Made by a program: the position numbers and the translations under genes. From Verrucomicrobiota bacterium (GTDB taxonomy: Bacteria; Verrucomicrobiota; Verrucomicrobiia; Limisphaerales; JACDHS01), in the NCBI GenBank assembly GCA_013820875.1, contig JACDHS010000004.1, positions 20,563 through 84,562 on the forward strand: a DNA stretch of 64,000 bases, in the 5' to 3' direction. The notes below the pieces were generated by a model that saw only the letters and a program-made list of their open reading frames with translations, was not told where the DNA came from and did not search any database. Positions within the stretch are counted from its first letter, which is position 1, and each line of letters starts with the position of its first letter. This document shows positions 6,255-58,531 of the stretch, piece after piece.

Positions 6255-8048
6255 TCATTTAATGAGCGTCAGTGTCACGCGACGCAGGTCCATAACAGAT
6301 TCTCCCGGAATCTCCAACGCGCGAAGCATCAGCGGGGCCTGCCCTTTGGTCAGCGCGATTTCGCCCAGTTTCAAGGTGCGGAACTCTTTCATTTGCGACT
6401 CACCAGGTGGGCGGGGAATCGTATCCTGATTCGTGTAAAGTGGGGGATCCCAACCGGGCGCCACTCTGCCAGCGAGGCGACTCTCTTTGAAACTCAGTTC
6501 GATGATCGATCCAGCATCCGCCAACGGGCAGGTGTAATCCACAGTCACCTCGTAGCGGCCAGTCGTCGCGACATCCAGAAGCCAGGCCACGCTGTCGCCT
6601 TTGCTTGTCCAGTTTACAAAATAGGAGCAATTTGGCGCGCCGCTGCTTCGTTTCACATTACCGCCCGGTTCACCATCGCGCGCCGGGAGCATGGTGATTG
6701 GAAATTCCGGGTACCCGGCTGAGATGGGACGCGGATCGACTGCATTTTTGCCTCTGGCCTTCATGATAGAACCGTCTGGGCTGCCAAACATCTCCCGCCG
6801 CCACGCCTTCACTGCGGCGCTCAAACTCGCGGCAATGTCGGGCTCCTTATCCGTCACCGGGGTTGCCTGGCCCGGATCAGCGACCATATCATAAAGCTGG
6901 CCAGCGGAATCCAATCGGTGCCGTTGCGTGCGCACGCTGATGTTATTACCCCACGTGGAGAAAATCATTCGATCAGGCCAGTCACCGCGTCGTTTCAAGA
7001 GCAGGGGGCTGAGATCCCGGCCATCAAGCGGTTTGTCGCCGACACGCCGAATGCCCGTCAACTTCGTCAGCGTTGGCAGCAGATCAATCGCGCCAGTGAT
7101 CTGGGTAACGGTGTGGCCTTTAGGCAGTTTCGCCGGCCAGCGAATGAAGAATGGGGAACGGATGCCGCCTTCGTCAGTCTGGCCTTTCTTGCCTTTCATG
7201 CCGCCGTTCCAACGAAAGCTGTTCGGGCCATTATCGGAAAAATAAATGACGATGGTATTCTTCGTCAGCTTCAACTCCTGGAGCTTGTTGAGGACACGGC
7301 CCACGTTCCAGTCCTGGTTCTCCATCATTGCGAGAGCGCAACGAGTTTCATCAGGCGCCTCCTTGCCGGGATCGGTGGCGTGCTGGGTAATGGACTTGTT
7401 CTTGAACCGTTGCCAATCCTTTTCCGGCGCGGCCCACGGCGAGTGCGGTGTAGTGAACGGCACGTAACAGAGAAAGGGGCGCGTTTTGTTTTGCTCAATG
7501 AATCGCAGTGCGCGATCCGTGCAGACATCAACGATGTAACCTTCGGTGCGGACCATGCGCCCGTTGTCCTCGAGAGGCGCATCGAAGTATTCACCCCAGT
7601 GACCTGAGGTGTGGCCGAAGTATTCGTCAAAACCCCGCGCCATCGGATGATATGGCCACTGGCTTCCATTGTGCCATTTACCAAAAGCGCCAGTGGCATA
7701 GCCTGCGGCCTTGAACGCATCAGCGACGGTCTTCTCATCCAGGTCCAGCCGTTCTTGTCCGGTGGAAACGCCACGCACACCGCCGCGTGGATGGTAACGT
7801 CCCGTGAGGAACTCCGCGCGCGTCGGCGAACAGACCGGGGAAACGTAAAATCGATCGAGCGTCACCCCAGCTTTGGCGATGGAATCAATGTTGGGCGTGG
7901 CAACCTGCCTGTTGCCATTGACGCTGTAATCACCCCAACCAGCATCGTCGGCGAGGAAGATCACGACATTCGGCGGCGTAGCCCCGGAGATAGTTGTTAC
8001 AAACAGGATCCAGACCAATAGTGAACAAGCGGGGAAGATATTTCTCAT
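6255..8048 (-). CDS. Arylsulfatase with C-terminal beta-sandwich extension
   Basis: PNVVIFLADD, CSPTR, GKWHNG, SDNG. Confidence 0.95.
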   Translation of the reverse strand: MRNIFPACSLLVWILFVTTISGATPPNVVIFLADDAGWGDYSVNGNRQVATPNIDSIAKAGVTLDRFYVSPVCSPTRAEFLTGRYHPRGGVRGVSTGQERLDLDEKTVADAFKAAGYATGAFGKWHNGSQWPYHPMARGFDEYFGHTSGHWGEYFDAPLEDNGRMVRTEGYIVDVCTDRALRFIEQNKTRPFLCYVPFTTPHSPWAAPEKDWQRFKNKSITQHATDPGKEAPDETRCALAMMENQDWNVGRVLNKLQELKLTKNTIVIYFSDNGPNSFRWNGGMKGKKGQTDEGGIRSPFFIRWPAKLPKGHTVTQITGAIDLLPTLTKLTGIRRVGDKPLDGRDLSPLLLKRRGDWPDRMIFSTWGNNISVRTQRHRLDSAGQLYDMVADPGQATPVTDKEPDIAASLSAAVKAWRREMFGSPDGSIMKARGKNAVDPRPISAGYPEFPITMLPARDGEPGGNVKRSSGAPNCSYFVNWTSKGDSVAWLLDVATTGRYEVTVDYTCPLADAGSIIELSFKESRLAGRVAPGWDPPLYTNQDTIPRPPGESQMKEFRTLKLGEIALTKGQAPLMLRALEIPGESVMDLRRVTLTLIK

Positions 8049-51887: not shown

Positions 51888-52661
51888 ATGAAACGGGCAC
51901 TCATAATTTTCTTCGCGCTGACAGTTTTCAACAGCGCCCACGCGGAAGTTCAATTCAAGACAGTGGAATACAAGCAAGGTGACGCCGTTTTGGAAGGGCT
52001 CCATGTGTATGACGATGTTGCCACAGGCAAACGCCCGGGGGTGCTCGTTGTCCATCAATGGAAAGGGTTGGGCGATTACGAAAAGAAACGCGCCGAGATG
52101 CTGGCGAAGCTCGGATACAACGTTTTCGCAGCCGATATTTATGGAAAAGGGATCCGTCCGAAAGAAACAAAAGATGCCGCTGCCCAGGCTGGTAAATTCA
52201 AGAAAGATCCCGACCTGATGCGCGAACGAGTGAACGCTGCTTTCGAAGTGTTGCAGAAACATGCACTGACCGATTCCAGGCGAACGGCGGCAATTGGATA
52301 TTGTTTCGGCGGCACTGTGGTCCTGGAACTTGCCCGGAGCGGTGCTGATGCAAATGGTGTGGTGTCATTTCACGGAGGTCTGGGCACTTCGCAGCCTGCC
52401 GGTGAAGGCATGAAAGCAGAAATACTCGCTCTGCACGGTGCTGACGATCCGCATGTGCCTGTAGAAGAGGTCACAGCCTTTGCCAAAGAAATGCGGGAGG
52501 GAAAGGCTGACTGGCAATTGATCGCTTACGGAAACGCCGTTCATTCCTTTACCGATTGGAACGCTGGCAATGACAATTCCAAAGGCTCAGCCTACAACGA
52601 AAAAGCCGACAAACGTTCATGGGAAGCGATGAAGCTGTTTTTCGCGGAGTTGTTCAAGTGA
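51888..52661 (+). CDS. Dienelactone hydrolase family protein, secreted
   Basis: GYCFGG, HGADD, AVHSFT. Confidence 0.93.
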   Translation: MKRALIIFFALTVFNSAHAEVQFKTVEYKQGDAVLEGLHVYDDVATGKRPGVLVVHQWKGLGDYEKKRAEMLAKLGYNVFAADIYGKGIRPKETKDAAAQAGKFKKDPDLMRERVNAAFEVLQKHALTDSRRTAAIGYCFGGTVVLELARSGADANGVVSFHGGLGTSQPAGEGMKAEILALHGADDPHVPVEEVTAFAKEMREGKADWQLIAYGNAVHSFTDWNAGNDNSKGSAYNEKADKRSWEAMKLFFAELFK

Positions 52662-52754
52662 TGTGAGTGCATATTGCTGACAGGGCAATGCGATGTAATG
52701 TTTGAAAGCTATGTGCGCCTCGCCGCGCGCAGTCGAAAAACTCGGGAAAACCAC

Positions 52755-52783
52755 TTGCGCCATGTTGTAAACATCGTTAGTTT
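52755..52783 (+). promoter_or_regulatory. Sigma-70-type promoter of tRNA-Lys
   Basis: TTGCGC-17 bp-TAGTTT followed by GC-rich discriminator CGCCGCGC. Confidence 0.55.
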
Positions 52784-52823
52784 TCGCCGCGCTTTGACCC
52801 GAAAAGGTCTAAGTTCCTCAAGT

Positions 52824-52899
52824 GGGCTGGTAGCTCAGTTGGTAGAGCAGTGCCCTTTTAAGGCATTTGTCCAGGGTTCGAGTCCCTGCCAGCCCACCA
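52824..52899 (+). tRNA. tRNA-Lys(UUU)
   Basis: 76-nt cloverleaf: GGGCTGG/CCAGCCC acceptor stem, loop CT-TTT-AA, TTCGAGT T-loop, encoded CCA. Confidence 0.97.
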
Positions 52900-52912
52900 T
52901 TTCTTTTTCCGT

Positions 52913-53158
52913 ATGGCTTGGGTTTACATATTGCGAGGCACTCGTGGACGATATTATATCGGCGCGACGGACAATTTTGATCGTCGATTTGCTGAACATT
53001 GCAACGGAAAAGTCCACACCACCGCACGCTTGGGATTCCCTCTGGAAATTGTGTGCAAACGCGAATTGCCGTCTTTCTCGGATGCTTTGGTCCTCGAACG
53101 GGAGTTGAAGAAATTAAAGAATCCAAGATTCGCAATCTCTCGGTTGCAATCTGGTTGA
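52913..53158 (+). CDS. Small GIY-YIG nuclease family protein
   Basis: WVYIL...YYIGAT...RR..EH...ALVLERELK. Confidence 0.9.
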   Translation: MAWVYILRGTRGRYYIGATDNFDRRFAEHCNGKVHTTARLGFPLEIVCKRELPSFSDALVLERELKKLKNPRFAISRLQSG

Positions 53159-53162
53159 CGTT

Positions 53163-53235
53163 GTTGGTAGAGCAGCCCCGATTTTCGGGGTTTGTCCAGG
53201 GTTCGAGTCCCTGCCAGCCCACCATTTCTTTTTCC
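53163..53235 (+). pseudogene. Partial tRNA-Lys duplicate with rewritten anticodon arm
   Basis: Identical to 52838-52910 except the 15-nt anticodon arm; lacks the 5' acceptor strand. Confidence 0.9.
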
Positions 53236-53288
53236 ATGACGGTGGTTTACAACGAAGATTGCCATCAGGTGCCGCCTGGATGTCGAGT

Positions 53289-56200
53289 TCAGTCTTCTGT
53301 TCGCGTTCGGTAGTATTGGTGAGGCAAACTTTCGAGGCGGGGATCACTGAAGTGCCTCGGTGCATTGGTAAATGTATTCGTCAGAAGCGGAATCCAATCG
53401 AGCAGGTCGCTGGAGCCTTCCAGAATGAATGTTTGCCCTGAGACGCCCTCGATGCTGAAGCCGAATCCATTCGTTCCGAAACCAAATTGGCCATCGTTCA
53501 AAAGGATCAGCGGCGGAGTTGCTGCCGTTTGAAGAACCTCCTCCAGGAACCAACTGGACGAGTTCCCGTTGATAAACCCACGCGCACGGAGCATGGCACC
53601 GGGCGAACTCGATACACCGCTCCACTGCCAACCGCCCGGAATCCGTGTTCCTGTTCCCACACTGGTCCATACCGCTTGATCAGAAGAAATTTCCAAAGTG
53701 GCTGCTTCAACTTCAGAGCTAATTCCACCTCGCAGCCACTGGATTTCCGAATCATTGCGGCTCAGACTATGAACGGGCGGAGCTGTGTAGCTAAGCCGTC
53801 CAATGTTTTTGCGTGCTCGTCCGTATAAGGTTGTGAAGCTGCCACCAACGAGAGTTTTTCCATCGGCCTGAATGGCCAGAGAGAACACTGCCGAGTTGGT
53901 TCCAGCCACATCCATGTCGAAGGCGGTATCCAAACTGCCATCGCTATTAATACGTCCCAGTCCGTTTCGAGATCCTCCGGCCAGATTGGAAAACGCTCCT
54001 CCCACTAAGATTTTTCCATCTGCTTGCGCAACCAACGCACGGACGTAAGAATTGGGCTTCGGAGCAAAGGCAGTATCCAGAATACCGTCGGAATTGAACC
54101 TTACGAGGTATGATAGAGCTGAGTTGCCATTGTAGCTGAAGAGTCCACCGACAATCACCGCGCCGTCTGGCTGGAGTGCTAATGTGAACACCCACTGGTC
54201 CGATGATGACGAGCCCCATGTGTATATGTGGTCAAGGTTGCCACTGGAATCGAACCGGACTAGATGATGAGTTGGACCCAGGTTGCTCGGAAGGAAGCGA
54301 CCTCCGGCAATGATTTTTCCGTCCGTTTGAACCTGCATCGACTCCACTGCGGATAGATAGGTAAGAAAATATGGACTGGACCGGCTAAAAGAAGAATCCC
54401 AACTGCCATCCGAATTCAGGCGAATCAAAGGATAGACAGGCACTGGAGGTGTGGAATTCGGAGCATAGCCTACTAGAATTTTTCCATCAGGCTGAAGCGC
54501 CAGGCAGGAAACAGTCCCGTCAATATACGGAGCATAAGACTGATCGAGAGTGCCATCTGCATTCAAACGGCCGATAGACGTGCGCGTCTGCCCCGCCAAA
54601 TTCGTGAACGAGCCTCCCACCACGATTTTCCCATCGGTTTGCACAGCCAGAGCGCGGACGCCGCCGCCACTCACGCTCACATTGAAACTATCGTCACGCC
54701 TGCCGTCGGAATGAACGCGGGCGACACGGTTGCCGGGTGAGTTGGTGAAGTTGCCACCCATCACGATTTTACCGTCGGGTTGTATGGCCAAAGCATTGAC
54801 GGAACCGTCTGCGTCTGGATTAAAACTATCCGCATACCTGGGCCAGACATGAATGGTTTGACTTTGCATACTGCCGAGGGAATTCGTGACCACTACATGG
54901 TATGTGTCTCCGGTTGGCAAAGGTGCAGACACGTTGAGAGAGAAATTCGTCGCACTGCTTATAAGCACTCCGTTTTTGTACCATTGGTATGACAAAGGAC
55001 CGCTACCTGTTGCGGTGACACTAATAGTAGCGCCAGCCGTTATGGGTATCCAAAGGTCTCCCGTTTGAGCGGTGATCACTGGCGAACCAACCGAACTCTC
55101 GAGCACACTGGCAGAACCGTTATTATAGCCACCAAGCACAACGGCTCGGGCCCGAAGGGTGGCCGAAGAAGGAATATCAACACCTGTTGCTCGCCATCCC
55201 CCTGCAATTCGTTCGGCCGCAGGCAGGGCTGACCAGGAGGCACCGCTCCAATATTCAAAGCTGACCCGGTTTGCCTCTGGACTACTGCCGCCACGCAACC
55301 AGGTGATGGTTGAATTCTCAAGGGCAAGTGTTTCAGTGACTCTCGATGAACTGTTCAGACGCCCAATGTTTGAGCGCGATATTCCCCACAAATTTCCGAA
55401 AATGCCGCCTGCAAATACTTTTCCATCTTTACGTGGAGCCAAGCAGTGTATGTCGCCCGTGAAACTTGGATTGAAAATGGCGTCCACCGTTCCATCTGGA
55501 TGCAATTGGGCAACCCCCATATGAGTTTGTCCTCCCAAGGTGCCGAATGCACCAGCCAACAGAATCCTTCCATCTGCCTGGAGAATAATCGAACGAACCG
55601 TGTTGTTTGCTTCGGGCCGAAATGCCAGATCCAGAGAGCCGTTTACGTTGAGTCGGCCAATTCGTTGGCATGACTGTCCTCCCAGCGTGGTGAAATGGCC
55701 GCCGACAAGAATTCTCCCATCTTTCTGCACGACAATTGATCGAACCTCGCCATTGGCATTCGGGTTGAAGCTTCCGTCCAGTGAACCGTCTGAGTTGAGG
55801 CGGCCAATTCGCTGGCGTGACTGCCCGCCGAGGTTGCTGAACTGTCCACCGACCAGGATTCGTCCATCAGGCTGCAAAGCAATGCAGTTTACAATTGTGC
55901 CGAAGTTCATTACAGGATTGAAAGCGGCATCCAACGAACCATCCGCATTAAGGCGTCCGATCCCCTTTCTGGCCTGACCGGTGAGAGTTGCGAAGGAGCC
56001 TCCAACGAGGATCTTGCCGTCCGATTGCACGACACAAACATTCACGTTGCCATCTGCTCCTGGATTGAATTCCGTATCAAGGCTGCCGTCAGCATTCAAC
56101 CTTCCAATCCGGCTCCTTGATTGCCCCGCCAAAGTTGTAAACGCGCCTCCCACCAGGATCTTCTCATCTGGTTGAACGTTCAGGCAAAATACGCTGTTGT

Positions 56201-58022
56201 TGGCTCCTGGGTTGAAAGTTGTATCCAACGCGTCATCGGGACGAAATCGACCTATGAAATTTCGCTGTGAACTGGCGAGCACTGTGAATTGTCCACCGAC
56301 CAGGAGACCGCCGCCCGGTTGCAACGCCATTGCATAAACGCCTGAGTTGGCTCCGGGATTGAATGAGTCAGCTCCGAAAGAACTCAAGAGCGCTGGTTGA
56401 CTTCGGATGCTGCCAAGTGAGCTGCTTACCAACACTTCGAACGCATTCGCCGCGTTCTGAGCGCTTGGTGGGCTTGCCGTCCAAAATGAGCGTGTTGCAC
56501 CGGCCAAAGCCGCTCCGTCTCTGAACCACTGATACGAAAAGGGACCGGTTCCGACAGGTGCCACGTTGAATCGCACTTGAGCAGTGGTTCCCACAAATCG
56601 GTCACTGGGCTGGCTGCTCAGAGCGGGTGAACCAATCCCACTCTCGACGAACCATTCGGATCCACTGCCGTAGCCACCCCGCAAATAAGCCCGGGCTCGA
56701 ATCGTAGCATTGGACGGCAGGGCAAGACCGGTTAATTGCCATCCACCTGACACTCGTTCAGGAACAGAAAGATCAAGCCAATCCAGACCATTCGTGGAGT
56801 AAGCAAGGGAGGCACTGCTTGCTTCCGGGCTGCTGCCACCGCGCTGCCAGGAGATTGTAGAACCCTCTAAAGTGAGGCTTTGAACCGCAGGCAAATTATT
56901 GTTCAATCGTGCGATCCGACTTCGAGATGAGCCTCCAATTGAAGTGAAATTGCCACCTGCCAATAGTTTTCCGTCCGCCTGAAGCGCGAGGCAATAGACC
57001 GCAGCGGAGGCACTTGGATCGAAGGTGTCCAGAGTGCCATCCAGATTCAACCGCACTATATTCGAGCGTGACTGACCGCTGACACTATCGAAGCTACCGC
57101 CTGCCAGAATCATGCCGTTCGCCTGCACGGCGAATGTGCGAACATCGCCGTTTATTTCCGGATGGAAGTCGGCGTCAATGGATCCGTCGGTGTTCAGGCG
57201 ACCGATATGTAATCGTGTAAGGCCTCCAAGAGTATTGAATTTGCCGCCTGCGAGAATTTTCCCGTCTGCTTGCAAGGCGAGGCAGTATACCGCCTCGTCG
57301 GCTTCTGAATCAAAATCGTCGTCGAGTGAGCCATCTGGATGGAAGCGCGCGATCTTGTTCCGCCCGCCCTGGGCGCTCGTAAAGTTTCCGCCTGCGATAA
57401 TCTTTCCGTCTGGCTGCAGGGCCAGTGAATAGACGGAGTCGTTGATTGCGGGACTAAAGCTTTCGTCGAGCGAGCCATCTTCGTTGAGGCGTCCAAGATA
57501 GGCGCGCGCCACGCCCGAGAGCGTTGTGAACGAGCCACCCACGAGGATCTTTCCGTCAGGTTGTGTCGCCATGACATAAACGTTTGTGTCCGCTCCGGAA
57601 TTAAAGAAAGGATCCAGGCTGCCATCCGCATTCAGTCTGGCGATACGACTGCGGCTTTTGCTTGTAAGGTTTGTGAAAGCACCGCCAACAAGAATTTTTC
57701 CGTCAGGCTGCACACTGAGACAATAGACAGGAGTGCTGGCTGGGCTGGTTATTCCCGGGCTGAAAGTTGTGTCGAGCGAATCGTAACCATAATCGAAATG
57801 AAACCGCCCGAGCCCATTACGGGTCGAACCTGCCAGACTTCCAAAAGCTCCGCCAACCAACAAGTTGCCATCCGCTTGCACTGCGAAGGCATAAACCGTG
57901 TTGCCTGCTCCTGGATTAAAACTGTCAGCAGTTTGGGAATGAAGTGGCGCAGCGAAGCTGAACACGAAGAGCATTATAAGACAAAATGCTGAATTAATTC
58001 TAAAGTGATGGACTGGTTGCAT
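53289..58022 (-). CDS. Large secreted delta-60 repeat / Ig-like domain protein (start reassigned to ATG at 58022)
   Basis: Many QPDGKILVGG.F...RLN.DGSLD.FNP repeats in three blocks; GPxSYQW Ig-like domains; LEGSSDLLDW C-terminal domain. Confidence 0.92.
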   Translation of the reverse strand: MQPVHHFRINSAFCLIMLFVFSFAAPLHSQTADSFNPGAGNTVYAFAVQADGNLLVGGAFGSLAGSTRNGLGRFHFDYGYDSLDTTFSPGITSPASTPVYCLSVQPDGKILVGGAFTNLTSKSRSRIARLNADGSLDPFFNSGADTNVYVMATQPDGKILVGGSFTTLSGVARAYLGRLNEDGSLDESFSPAINDSVYSLALQPDGKIIAGGNFTSAQGGRNKIARFHPDGSLDDDFDSEADEAVYCLALQADGKILAGGKFNTLGGLTRLHIGRLNTDGSIDADFHPEINGDVRTFAVQANGMILAGGSFDSVSGQSRSNIVRLNLDGTLDTFDPSASAAVYCLALQADGKLLAGGNFTSIGGSSRSRIARLNNNLPAVQSLTLEGSTISWQRGGSSPEASSASLAYSTNGLDWLDLSVPERVSGGWQLTGLALPSNATIRARAYLRGGYGSGSEWFVESGIGSPALSSQPSDRFVGTTAQVRFNVAPVGTGPFSYQWFRDGAALAGATRSFWTASPPSAQNAANAFEVLVSSSLGSIRSQPALLSSFGADSFNPGANSGVYAMALQPGGGLLVGGQFTVLASSQRNFIGRFRPDDALDTTFNPGANNSVFCLNVQPDEKILVGGAFTTLAGQSRSRIGRLNADGSLDTEFNPGADGNVNVCVVQSDGKILVGGSFATLTGQARKGIGRLNADGSLDAAFNPVMNFGTIVNCIALQPDGRILVGGQFSNLGGQSRQRIGRLNSDGSLDGSFNPNANGEVRSIVVQKDGRILVGGHFTTLGGQSCQRIGRLNVNGSLDLAFRPEANNTVRSIILQADGRILLAGAFGTLGGQTHMGVAQLHPDGTVDAIFNPSFTGDIHCLAPRKDGKVFAGGIFGNLWGISRSNIGRLNSSSRVTETLALENSTITWLRGGSSPEANRVSFEYWSGASWSALPAAERIAGGWRATGVDIPSSATLRARAVVLGGYNNGSASVLESSVGSPVITAQTGDLWIPITAGATISVTATGSGPLSYQWYKNGVLISSATNFSLNVSAPLPTGDTYHVVVTNSLGSMQSQTIHVWPRYADSFNPDADGSVNALAIQPDGKIVMGGNFTNSPGNRVARVHSDGRRDDSFNVSVSGGGVRALAVQTDGKIVVGGSFTNLAGQTRTSIGRLNADGTLDQSYAPYIDGTVSCLALQPDGKILVGYAPNSTPPVPVYPLIRLNSDGSWDSSFSRSSPYFLTYLSAVESMQVQTDGKIIAGGRFLPSNLGPTHHLVRFDSSGNLDHIYTWGSSSSDQWVFTLALQPDGAVIVGGLFSYNGNSALSYLVRFNSDGILDTAFAPKPNSYVRALVAQADGKILVGGAFSNLAGGSRNGLGRINSDGSLDTAFDMDVAGTNSAVFSLAIQADGKTLVGGSFTTLYGRARKNIGRLSYTAPPVHSLSRNDSEIQWLRGGISSEVEAATLEISSDQAVWTSVGTGTRIPGGWQWSGVSSSPGAMLRARGFINGNSSSWFLEEVLQTAATPPLILLNDGQFGFGTNGFGFSIEGVSGQTFILEGSSDLLDWIPLLTNTFTNAPRHFSDPRLESLPHQYYRTRTED

Positions 58023-58168
58023 AGTGGATTCCCTGCTTTTGAAAACTGAAGTCCAGAGCTTTGAAAGGCAAGGCCGAACCGGCGCAAAAACCCGACTTAT
58101 CGGCGGGGCTCGGCATCTTACTCCATGGAGAAATTCACATTCAGATAGGCCGTTGCAAATGGCCGGAT

Positions 58169-58531
58169 TTACATGATGAAAACCTGCTTGCCACTCCGGA
58201 CAGATTGCAAGGTGGCGCGGTTGGACTTTAGGATTTGAATGGCCGTTTCGTTGGGAAGTTGAAACTGGTTCAAGCTGTAGCTGACCAGGGTATCGCCGTT
58301 CTGCGCTGTTACACACGCTGTATCTTCCACCTCCACTCCCTCCAAGGCTTGATGCCTGGCCGCACAGAAACCTTTGCCTGTGGGACCGACGATCCATTCG
58401 ACTGCATTGACCAGATGAGTCAGCGCATCCTGGATCAAGCCGCCGCCGGTTTCATGGTTGTTGTAATAGACGTCGCGGTAAGCCGGGCGAAGGCCGGGAT
58501 CCCAGGCGTGGCTGTGAACATCAACGATCAT
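58169..58531 (-). pseudogene. Chimeric remnant: amidohydrolase N-terminus joined to Gfo/Idh/MocA oxidoreductase fragments
   Basis: MIVDVHSHAW then GGGLIQDALTHLVN...EVEDT; no Rossmann N-terminus. Confidence 0.7.

Follow-up and report, generated by a model that had tools for sequence, protein, structure and literature searches.

Small nucleases of the GIY-YIG family hydrolyse DNA and do not rejoin it through a covalent intermediate. One of them, SsnA, is described as a 94-amino-acid (aa) single-domain protein that binds a hairpin in single-stranded DNA (ssDNA) only and cuts a few nucleotides (nt) upstream (PMC11893778, Chenal et al. 2025). According to the same report, cleavage is affected by the bases just 5' of the palindrome, and ssn genes are flanked by hairpins (PMC11893778). 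For some Verrucomicrobia, cd10448 homologs are entered in its Supplementary Data 4 (YES for Chthoniobacter flavus, NO for Pedosphaera parvula) without naming the gene; the word tRNA is absent from the main text (PMC11893778). SegB is reported to be a free-standing GIY-YIG homing endonuclease of the tRNA gene cluster of T-even phages (PMC2330249), and in such a phage cluster it has been reported to drive the amplification, in tandem arrays, of tRNA together with segB through homologous recombination (PMC13096335). In the accessible part of the 2006 survey of GIY-YIG proteins, the mention of tRNA concerns a TrmH fusion (PMC1564403). Here we analysed a 64,000-nt stretch from a Verrucomicrobiota bacterium (assembly GCA_013820875.1, contig JACDHS010000004.1, positions 20,563 to 84,562 of the forward strand; hereafter the window, with positions counted from its first letter), in which a tRNA-Lys gene is followed by the gene of an 81-aa GIY-YIG nuclease and by a second tRNA copy whose anticodon arm is replaced by a hairpin, the plug. 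The same arrangement is found next to tRNA genes of numerous soil Verrucomicrobia and therefore resembles a kind of selfish DNA not described before. Our favoured reading, to which we give a probability of roughly 55%, is a family of selfish nuclease-plus-hairpin cassettes that live in Verrucomicrobiota tRNA genes and recombine via tRNA homology without an integrase, the window carrying a reduced member made of tRNA, GIY gene, plugged copy and vestige. In the full-text literature, subscription journals not being covered, we found no published account of small GIY-YIG genes with hairpin-plugged tRNA copies.

The intact tRNA-Lys(UUU) gene occupies 52824..52899 on the + strand (Rfam RF00005, 73.9 bits) and was the single tRNA called by ARAGORN in the window, as tRNA-Lys(ttt). 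It is followed by a trailer, TTTCTTTTTCC (52900..52910, + strand), which is part of a direct repeat; the cassette-free tRNA-Lys of a same-genus genome, G001, has a nearly identical trailer, tttctttttc. The nuclease gene (52913..53158, + strand; PF01541, E 2.2e-14) starts with an ATG 13 nt past the CCA of tRNA-Lys and is the sole open reading frame (ORF) between the two 73-nt copies of the repeat, at 52838-52910 and 53163-53235, which are spaced by 325 nt and 89% identical. All 8 mismatches fall within 15 nt, corresponding to tRNA positions 28-42, that read TGCCCTTTTAAGGCA in the intact gene and CCCCGATTTTCGGGG in the copy. An earlier note on this DNA (the original prediction) had observed this unit of tRNA-Lys, GIY-YIG gene and altered tRNA copy, and we confirmed the observation. 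Indeed, the repeat search and the PF01541 match bore out a 73-nt repeat around an 81-aa GIY-YIG gene, and the difference between the copies was confined, as claimed, to a palindrome of the same length (8/8 mismatches).

By alignment, the downstream copy begins at tRNA position 15, positions 1-14 with the 5' acceptor strand being gone and positions 28-42 being replaced. This dead copy starts with a remnant of the tRNA 5' half, positions 15-27 (GTTGGTAGAGCAG, 53163..53175, + strand, within the direct repeat), the length of which varies in relatives from GAGCAG (6 nt) up to positions 5-27. Then comes the plug CCCCGATTTTCGGGG (53176..53190, strand not assigned), delimited by repeat comparison and folding, and finally positions 43-76, that is, the variable loop, T arm, 3' acceptor strand and CCA, together with the trailer (53191..53235, + strand), with 100% identity to the intact gene. 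ARAGORN did not call the copy a tRNA and Rfam gave no tRNA match to it, its only hit there being mascRNA with 25.1 bits, below the gathering score of 42.5. The copy does not form a cloverleaf with acceptor stem and anticodon loop and so falls outside what is called a tRNA. The proposal that it is a tRNA decoy was not supported, as the copy has neither a 5' acceptor strand nor an anticodon loop and received no tRNA call from any tool. Immediately after the repeat, ATGACGGTGGTTTACA (53236..53251, + strand) matches the nuclease start ATGGCTTGGGTTTACA (52913-52928) at 12/16 positions. This echo had been noted before and is real; the ATGACGG echo is best read as a leftover of a second tandem GIY unit, of which it would be the start. 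The window instance is a modest, partly decayed member of the cassette family.

The nuclease matched PF01541 as a single domain over residues 1-71, with 53.9 bits vs a cut-off of 22.6. Residues Y5, Y15, R25, H29, E62 and K66 were invariant in 45 aligned sequences, and we presume for the Tyr/Tyr/Arg/His/Glu residues the catalytic roles established in work on I-TevI and UvrC. The reported SsnA mutants Y6A, Y17A and E64A provide a comparison for residue roles (PMC11893778). The AlphaFold2 (AF2) model had a pLDDT of 93.1. Its best Foldseek matches were 1zg2 (UPF0213 BH0048, also the nearest solved structure by sequence), 7wme (the HIGLE catalytic domain) and Slx1, and only GIY-YIG structures matched with a probability of at least 0.75. 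From this model we predict the beta-beta-alpha-beta-alpha fold of GIY-YIG nucleases, in the variety seen in SLX1/UPF0213 proteins. TIGR01453 (group I intron endonuclease) reached 18.8 bits vs a cut-off of 56.05, over residues 2-33 only, and the protein matched no family in PADLOC or PHROGs. The gene is under purifying selection, with a ratio of nonsynonymous to synonymous substitution rates (dN/dS) of 0.03-0.20 in 7 of 8 computable pairs of relatives; the pair formed by the window and L036 was saturated for this measure.

The second constant part of the cassette is the hairpin, of which we collected 267 cases across 160 related loci. The family consensus is a perfect 18-nt palindrome, CCCCGAAAGCTTTCGGGG, in which the stem CCCCGAA/TTCGGGG is kept and the four central bases are variable. 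Compensatory stem variants, CCCCGAC..GTCGGGG and CCCCGC..GCGGGG, were found in relatives. The window plug, CCCCGATTTTCGGGG, is a short variant of this consensus, and as ssDNA it folds at -6.6 kcal/mol (z -3.7 vs shuffles). Its central TTT had been taken for a kept anticodon. As the consensus loop varies and the closest relative (protein identity 74-75%) carries CCCCGCAACGCGGGG, without TTT, we regard this triplet as a coincidence of the short variant, and that part of the original prediction was abandoned.

The hairpin also has conserved flanks. It lies in the exact context GAGCAG-hairpin-TTGGT in 226/267 cases, with CAG directly 5' in 250/267 and TTG directly 3' in 255/267. GAGCAG is tRNA positions 22-27 and TTGGT is positions 43-47, so that the plug takes the place of the anticodon arm. 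All fixed-pattern hairpin matches were on the same strand as the GIY gene. Both tRNA-Lys and tRNA-Met have GGTAGAGCAG before and TTGGT after the anticodon arm, and these common flanks may explain the use of these two tRNAs. At locus L079 (1150-1330), a decayed tRNA-Met copy holds hairpins after three different CAG sites, and in the downstream copies of L068 and L127 a hairpin is nested in a hairpin. The palindrome therefore behaves as an insert in its own right, which suggests that the palindrome itself was inserted site-specifically. A P-nucleotide-like origin, whereby the hairpin would be made de novo from its flanks, was considered and rejected because the palindrome is alike across loci and unrelated to the flanks.

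How far the package recurs was assessed with two scans, one of a genome collection (best 80 of 120 relatives, 47-74% identity, almost all from metagenome-assembled genomes, MAGs, of Verrucomicrobiota) and one of metagenomes (best 80 of 322 relatives). A full tRNA on the same strand was present upstream of the gene in 74/80 genome loci (44 Lys-UUU and 30 Met-CAU), so small GIY-YIG genes at tRNA repeats, which the original prediction proposed to look for among relatives, do exist. The distance from the tRNA end to the ATG was 5-24 nt in 63/80 genome loci and 87-355 nt in 11. The 6 genome loci without a called tRNA comprise 4 with a partial or plugged copy directly upstream, 1 with a partial copy farther upstream and 1 cut by a contig edge. 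A copy of the 3' tRNA part was found within 130 nt past the stop in 60/74 genome loci. Among the metagenome loci with at least 100 nt upstream (n=74), a tRNA was found within 25 nt in 58 and farther away in 1, and the 15 metagenome loci without a called tRNA mostly have partial or plugged tRNA sequence beside the gene; the downstream copy was present in 50/55. A CCCG..CGGG hairpin occurs in 55/60 of the genome and 45/50 of the metagenome downstream copies, and the palindrome is strongly associated with this clade of GIY-YIG genes, as had been anticipated. Several contigs or MAGs contain both Lys and Met cassettes. Clusters of these relatives are named only 'GIY-YIG nuclease family protein' or 'putative endonuclease'.

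We then coded the 160 loci by their layout, with p for a plug, T for an intact tRNA and G for the GIY gene. The commonest layout was pTGp (50 loci), in which two plugged copies bracket the intact tRNA and the GIY gene, an arrangement overlooked by the original prediction. The window's own type, TGp, came to 33. The remaining layouts had multiple p units, tandem G units, mini-units or truncations at contig ends. In L039, the order is promoter, tRNA 2-27, hairpin, 43-49, 32 nt, intact tRNA, 10 nt, GIY, 22-27, hairpin, 43-76, and L079 plus 86 further cases are arranged in the same way. The plugged pieces complement each other as the halves of a single plugged tRNA and overlap in GAGCAG-hairpin-TTGGTTC. 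The spacer that leads up to the intact tRNA repeats, at several loci and in diverged form, the sequence ahead of the plugged half. With the intact tRNA and the nuclease gene standing between two plugged halves, the working tRNA is therefore inside the unit. The reverse order, that is, promoter, plugged tRNA, GIY and intact tRNA, was found at L049, L136, L139 and L140.

Repetition of the unit was also seen. Two or three GIY units or vestiges, such as the 11-aa vestige in L101, were present at 15/80 genome loci, and tandem arrays, which the original prediction had invoked, do occur. In L114 (800-1960), six tandem 78-nt plugged units, each made of tRNA 1-27, hairpin, 43-54 and a 22-nt leader, precede the intact tRNA-Met. 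Farther downstream in L114 is a second, different CAU tRNA with its own plugged 5' copy. All layouts would be derivable from one another via recombination between the tRNA-derived repeats. The short TGp form, for example, could arise from pTGp by deletion between the two copies of positions 1-27.

A wider look at order-level relatives gave a match at E<=1e-3 in 9/41 genomes (G000 included). Nine matches lay outside G000, of which six were small genes on tRNA-derived sequence: L007 at tRNA-Lys, L008 at tRNA-Met, L009 and L014 at fMet-like tRNAs, L011 at tRNA-Asn and L013 at a partial fMet-like copy. All six loci have partial tRNA copies, with a GC hairpin in the anticodon-arm region in all but L013. 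The other GIY clades (32-39% identity), found at tRNA-fMet (L009, L014, L013) and tRNA-Asn (L011), have TCCCG..CGGGA hairpins. The place of the plug in the anticodon arm differs by clade: in fMet it is the 3' strand, and in Asn it is the 5' strand together with the loop. The duplicated segment of the fMet clade includes the tRNA's own terminator, and in L011 two gene-less mini-units lie ahead of the gene. In both L010 and L015 the match is a domain of a very large protein. The remaining match, in L012 (1461-1752; G004:C351), is a small gene from a different GIY-YIG subfamily (34% identity). It is bounded by a perfect 13-bp inverted repeat, CACCCCGTGAGAT / ATCTCACGGGGTG, so that the nuclease gene sits in the loop of a palindrome, and it splits, between two codons, an ORF resembling an integron-type tyrosine recombinase.

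ARAGORN called 44 tRNAs in the window's own genome, with exactly one Lys(ttt), and the loss of the unit would be constrained because this only tRNA-Lys(UUU) is interleaved with it. The genome has one small GIY-YIG gene, two other PF01541 matches lying in ORFs of 314 and 583 aa, and the window hairpin occurs once; no proliferation of the cassette in the genome was observed. In an even, phylum-wide sample of genomes of at least 90% completeness, 8/401 had a match at E<=1e-12, and the three families with matches accounted for 4/35, 1/31 and 2/2 genomes. This patchy distribution is consistent with gain and loss, and likewise with an old, vertically inherited cassette that is easily lost through recombination between its repeats. 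On a tree of 73 proteins (8 rows with an ORF of <65 aa or >100 aa were omitted), the Lys/Met label required 2 changes vs 23.7 in shuffles, with 0/500 shuffles as low. Lineages are therefore faithful to one tRNA. The window protein has as its sister a protein that also lies at tRNA-Lys, in a different genus of the family (98 SH-aLRT).

The same-genus genome G001 has a tRNA-Lys and does not have the cassette. We considered it as an empty allele and rejected it. Its left flank matched over 48 nt only and its right flank not at all, and because the flanks are non-syntenic G001 is not a true empty allele. The matching left-flank block, 52747..52794 on the + strand, is 79% matched in G001 directly 5' of tRNA-Lys. 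It is a putative promoter or leader of the tRNA-Lys gene, a role that we infer from its conservation and place since a sigma-70 consensus scan found no promoter there; a promoter and terminator scan of 52400-53600 found neither. On the other side of the cassette, a 1702-aa ORF (53289-58397, - strand) consists of many ~50-aa repeats of the form LVGGxFTxxxGxxRxxIxRLNxDGSLDxxF. Its stop is 38 nt from the vestige, and a second repeat family of the window lies inside it. On contig C127 of the same genome, a tyrosine-recombinase domain (6725-7237, E 4.6e-49) lies ~165 nt upstream of a tRNA-Met(CAU) at 7402-7477.

Four sequencing runs were examined as contigs only. One DNA run contained the stretch (share 0.95) and is probably its source. 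In run X1, a cassette-specific unitig (window 52881-53220) had a depth of 9.25 vs 15 in both flanks, which is not readable as a share of cells. The same run contained a 324-nt contig with a related cassette of another organism. In the RNA run, coverage was confined to tRNA-like parts and came from other organisms.

Our reading of the locus as a selfish cassette builds on the observed anatomy and recurrence, on the conserved hairpin, flanks and catalytic residues, and on purifying selection; nuclease activity, substrate, mobility and the direction of events we infer. The nuclease would recognise its own hairpin, extruded as ssDNA or as a cruciform at a heavily transcribed locus, and would cut near it. 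The break or nick would stimulate homologous recombination via the tRNA-derived arms. These arms would provide near-universal homology for entry into the same tRNA gene of another chromosome or lineage, and no integrase would be required. Recombination between repeats would then give the short form, the tandem arrays and the gene-less mini-units. In keeping with such a scheme, PF00589 (tyrosine integrase) had no match on the window's contig, serine recombinases not being searched, and its 4 matches elsewhere in the genome were all on other contigs. The interpretation given in the original prediction was thus partly supported, in that the unit belongs to a tRNA gene and has no integrase; as it also proposed, the nuclease may drive the duplication and the palindrome may be a target or immunity mark. 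One may go further and see here a new class of prokaryotic mobile elements, namely hairpin-bounded cassettes that would interrupt, at the anticodon arm, a tRNA gene present in single copy and would supply both a minimal GIY-YIG nuclease and an intact tRNA in its place. Neither integrase nor transposase would be needed for their movement, which would proceed by hairpin-directed cleavage of ssDNA or a cruciform and by host recombination via tRNA arms. The host would thereby depend on the element's tRNA, a form of addiction, and the 18-nt palindrome would be a site-specific insert after CAG. We consider this broader proposal tentative and, as a whole, rather improbable.

Several observations weigh against a selfish, mobile cassette. 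With regard to movement, cassette and hairpin are single-copy in their own genome, vs the NTS copies of Ssn, which are reported to number in the hundreds; the G001 comparison yielded no empty site between conserved flanks; and no circle or joint was found in the contigs of the four runs. With regard to carriers, zero matches were found in 50,697 phage records, plasmids gave only 6 distant matches (<60% identity, other genera), and no relative closer than 74% identity was found among the matches of the genome and metagenome scans. With regard to the enzyme, the 81-aa protein has no DNA-binding domain of the homing-endonuclease type, the Foldseek probability for I-TevI was 0.30, the protein being closer to structure-specific nucleases, and one close pair had a dN/dS of 0.65. 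The Ssn motif SRM, HGTCWYN(0-2)YYVSBRHN(0-5)WNVSBRGN(0-2)RNCYNB, occurred at 0/81 loci within 400 nt on either strand. Strict tRNA fidelity and purifying selection fit long vertical inheritance and host function equally well. Finally, the intact tRNA stays unplugged beside the plugged copy, an escape that the cassette model leaves unexplained.

These points make a host-serving nuclease a serious rival, because no movement, no phage or close plasmid carrier, a single copy, tRNA fidelity, purifying selection and no Ssn motif are what we found. The nuclease would be a domesticated Ssn- or SLX1-like enzyme with its binding hairpin, vertically inherited at tRNA-Lys and tRNA-Met. The partial copies and arrays would then be side effects of recombination, whether plain or stimulated by the nuclease, in a strongly transcribed place and not the work of a mobile element. 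Its possible roles include control of recombination or transformation, or of tRNA gene dosage. The two label changes on the 73-protein tree, the dN/dS of 0.03-0.20 in 7/8 pairs and the sister protein at the same tRNA in another genus of the family (98 SH-aLRT) are all as expected for such a gene, and so are its single copy in its own genome and the failure to find a phage or close plasmid carrying it. Precedents are also at hand, as SsnA is proposed in its report to be a transformation modulator and not mobile (PMC11893778), and SegB-driven tRNA amplification is reported to benefit its phage (PMC13096335). Yet the gene is patchy, being present in 8/401 genomes of the phylum and 4/35 of its best-populated family and in none of same-genus G001, and truncated, frameshifted and stop-containing copies exist together with vestiges. 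Related clades occupy other tRNAs, with different hairpins and plug positions, and the exact swap of an anticodon arm for a conserved palindrome in redundant copies is unlike passive decay. PADLOC, moreover, gave no match. We hold the domesticated nuclease to be unlikely, though it is the alternative that survives best.

A second alternative places the function at the RNA level. The plugged partial tRNA would be a 3' processing, stabilising or terminating signal of a tRNA-GIY co-transcript, or a tRNA-like decoy. Co-transcription with the tRNA is plausible because the ATG lies 13 nt past the CCA with no terminator in between. The copy retains the T arm, the 3' acceptor strand and the CCA, and in the fMet clade the duplicated segment contains the tRNA's own terminator. 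However, no terminator-like site was found in 52400-53600, and the copy, called a tRNA by no tool, is without a 5' acceptor strand or any anticodon loop. The upstream plugs of the pTGp layout (50/160) and the six-fold tandem plugged units cannot be 3' signals. This explanation appears very unlikely to us.

A direct repeat of the 3' part of a tRNA gene is the classic footprint of insertion by an integrase. That the tRNA-derived repeats are attL and attR of a tyrosine- or serine-integrase element, now a decayed island or mobilised in trans, would fit the 73-nt repeat of the tRNA 3' part at both ends, though the palindrome interrupts it, and the island-end-like displaced tRNA 3' fragments with AT-rich repeats at L123, L127, L149, L150 and L165, but it is hardly credible given a contig unmatched by PF00589, a unit of 325 bp, a conserved palindrome within the repeat that is foreign to integrase att sites, 160 recurring loci at which an integrase is not the linked gene, and plugged halves of both the 5' and the 3' kind. 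The displaced fragments deserve mention in their own right. At these five loci and at L021 (G001:C228), displaced 3' pieces of tRNA-Lys begin within the anticodon arm and follow AT-rich repeats of the 'agcaacaaa' type. They resemble the termini of integrase-type islands inserted into the same tRNA, upstream of the GIY cassette.

If the selfish-cassette reading holds, uncultured soil bacteria in number carry in their tRNA genes a kind of selfish DNA so far undescribed, which in ~325 bp would combine an 81-residue nuclease with an 18-nt palindrome. It would extend hairpin-directed GIY-YIG nucleases of the Ssn type from dispersed repeats to a precise genomic target and would add to the small nucleases of defined hairpin site from which ssDNA tools can be made. 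A recurring puzzle of annotation would also be explained, in which genes for a 'GIY-YIG nuclease family protein' have as neighbours pseudo-tRNAs, broken copies of tRNAs and odd 'tRNA-Pro/Met' calls. Lastly, it would provide a concrete system for the spread of nucleases without rejoining activity via universal tRNA homology.

Comparison with known systems places the cassette as follows. Integrase islands at tRNA genes use the tRNA as a safe site, where a working tRNA and a displaced partial copy remain after insertion. The cassette is unlike them in having no PF00589 match on its contig, a 325-bp unit, a palindrome in the repeat and plugs on both sides. REP/RAYT and IS200/IS605 systems, to which the discussion of the Ssn report refers, have hairpin-recognising HUH transposases. 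Like them, the cassette associates a small palindrome, a conserved 5' flank and one nuclease gene, forms clusters and has its insertions beside a short specific sequence (CAG here, 250/267); unlike theirs, its hairpins are confined to tRNA copies and its enzyme is of the GIY-YIG type. GIY-YIG homing endonucleases of the I-TevI/Seg type are defined in part by a C-terminal DNA-binding domain, which was not found in the 81-aa protein.

SegB is larger and multi-domain. The cassette shares with it a GIY-YIG gene among tRNA genes and tandem repeats of tRNA plus nuclease, to be compared with the arrays at 15/80 loci. SegB is a phage enzyme, whereas the cassette protein had no PHROGs or phage match, and a hairpin plug is absent from SegB loci. 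In sequence and in fold, the protein matched best with SLX1-like/UPF0213 proteins (1zg2, 1ywl), Slx1 and HIGLE, which like the window protein are minimal GIY-YIG domains without auxiliary domains; identity to 1zg2 was about 33% over the fold alignment. Slx1 and HIGLE are reported to cut branched DNA (PMC1564403), an activity that would suit an extruded palindrome as substrate, whereas no tRNA linkage or hairpin partner of SLX1-like/UPF0213 proteins is described in the available part of that survey (PMC1564403). With Ssn, the cassette has in common a single-domain GIY-YIG protein of about 80-95 aa (81 aa in the window) with conserved Tyr/Tyr/Glu, and a gene accompanied, on one side or both, by a conserved inverted repeat that forms a hairpin. 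It differs in that the window hairpin is present in one copy, inside a tRNA copy, and is not dispersed in the genome. The reported Ssn cut site lies a few nt 5' of the hairpin, which is where the conserved GAGCAG stands here. By analogy, the cassette appears to resemble both the Ssn hairpin-directed ssDNA nucleases and SegB-driven tRNA amplification.

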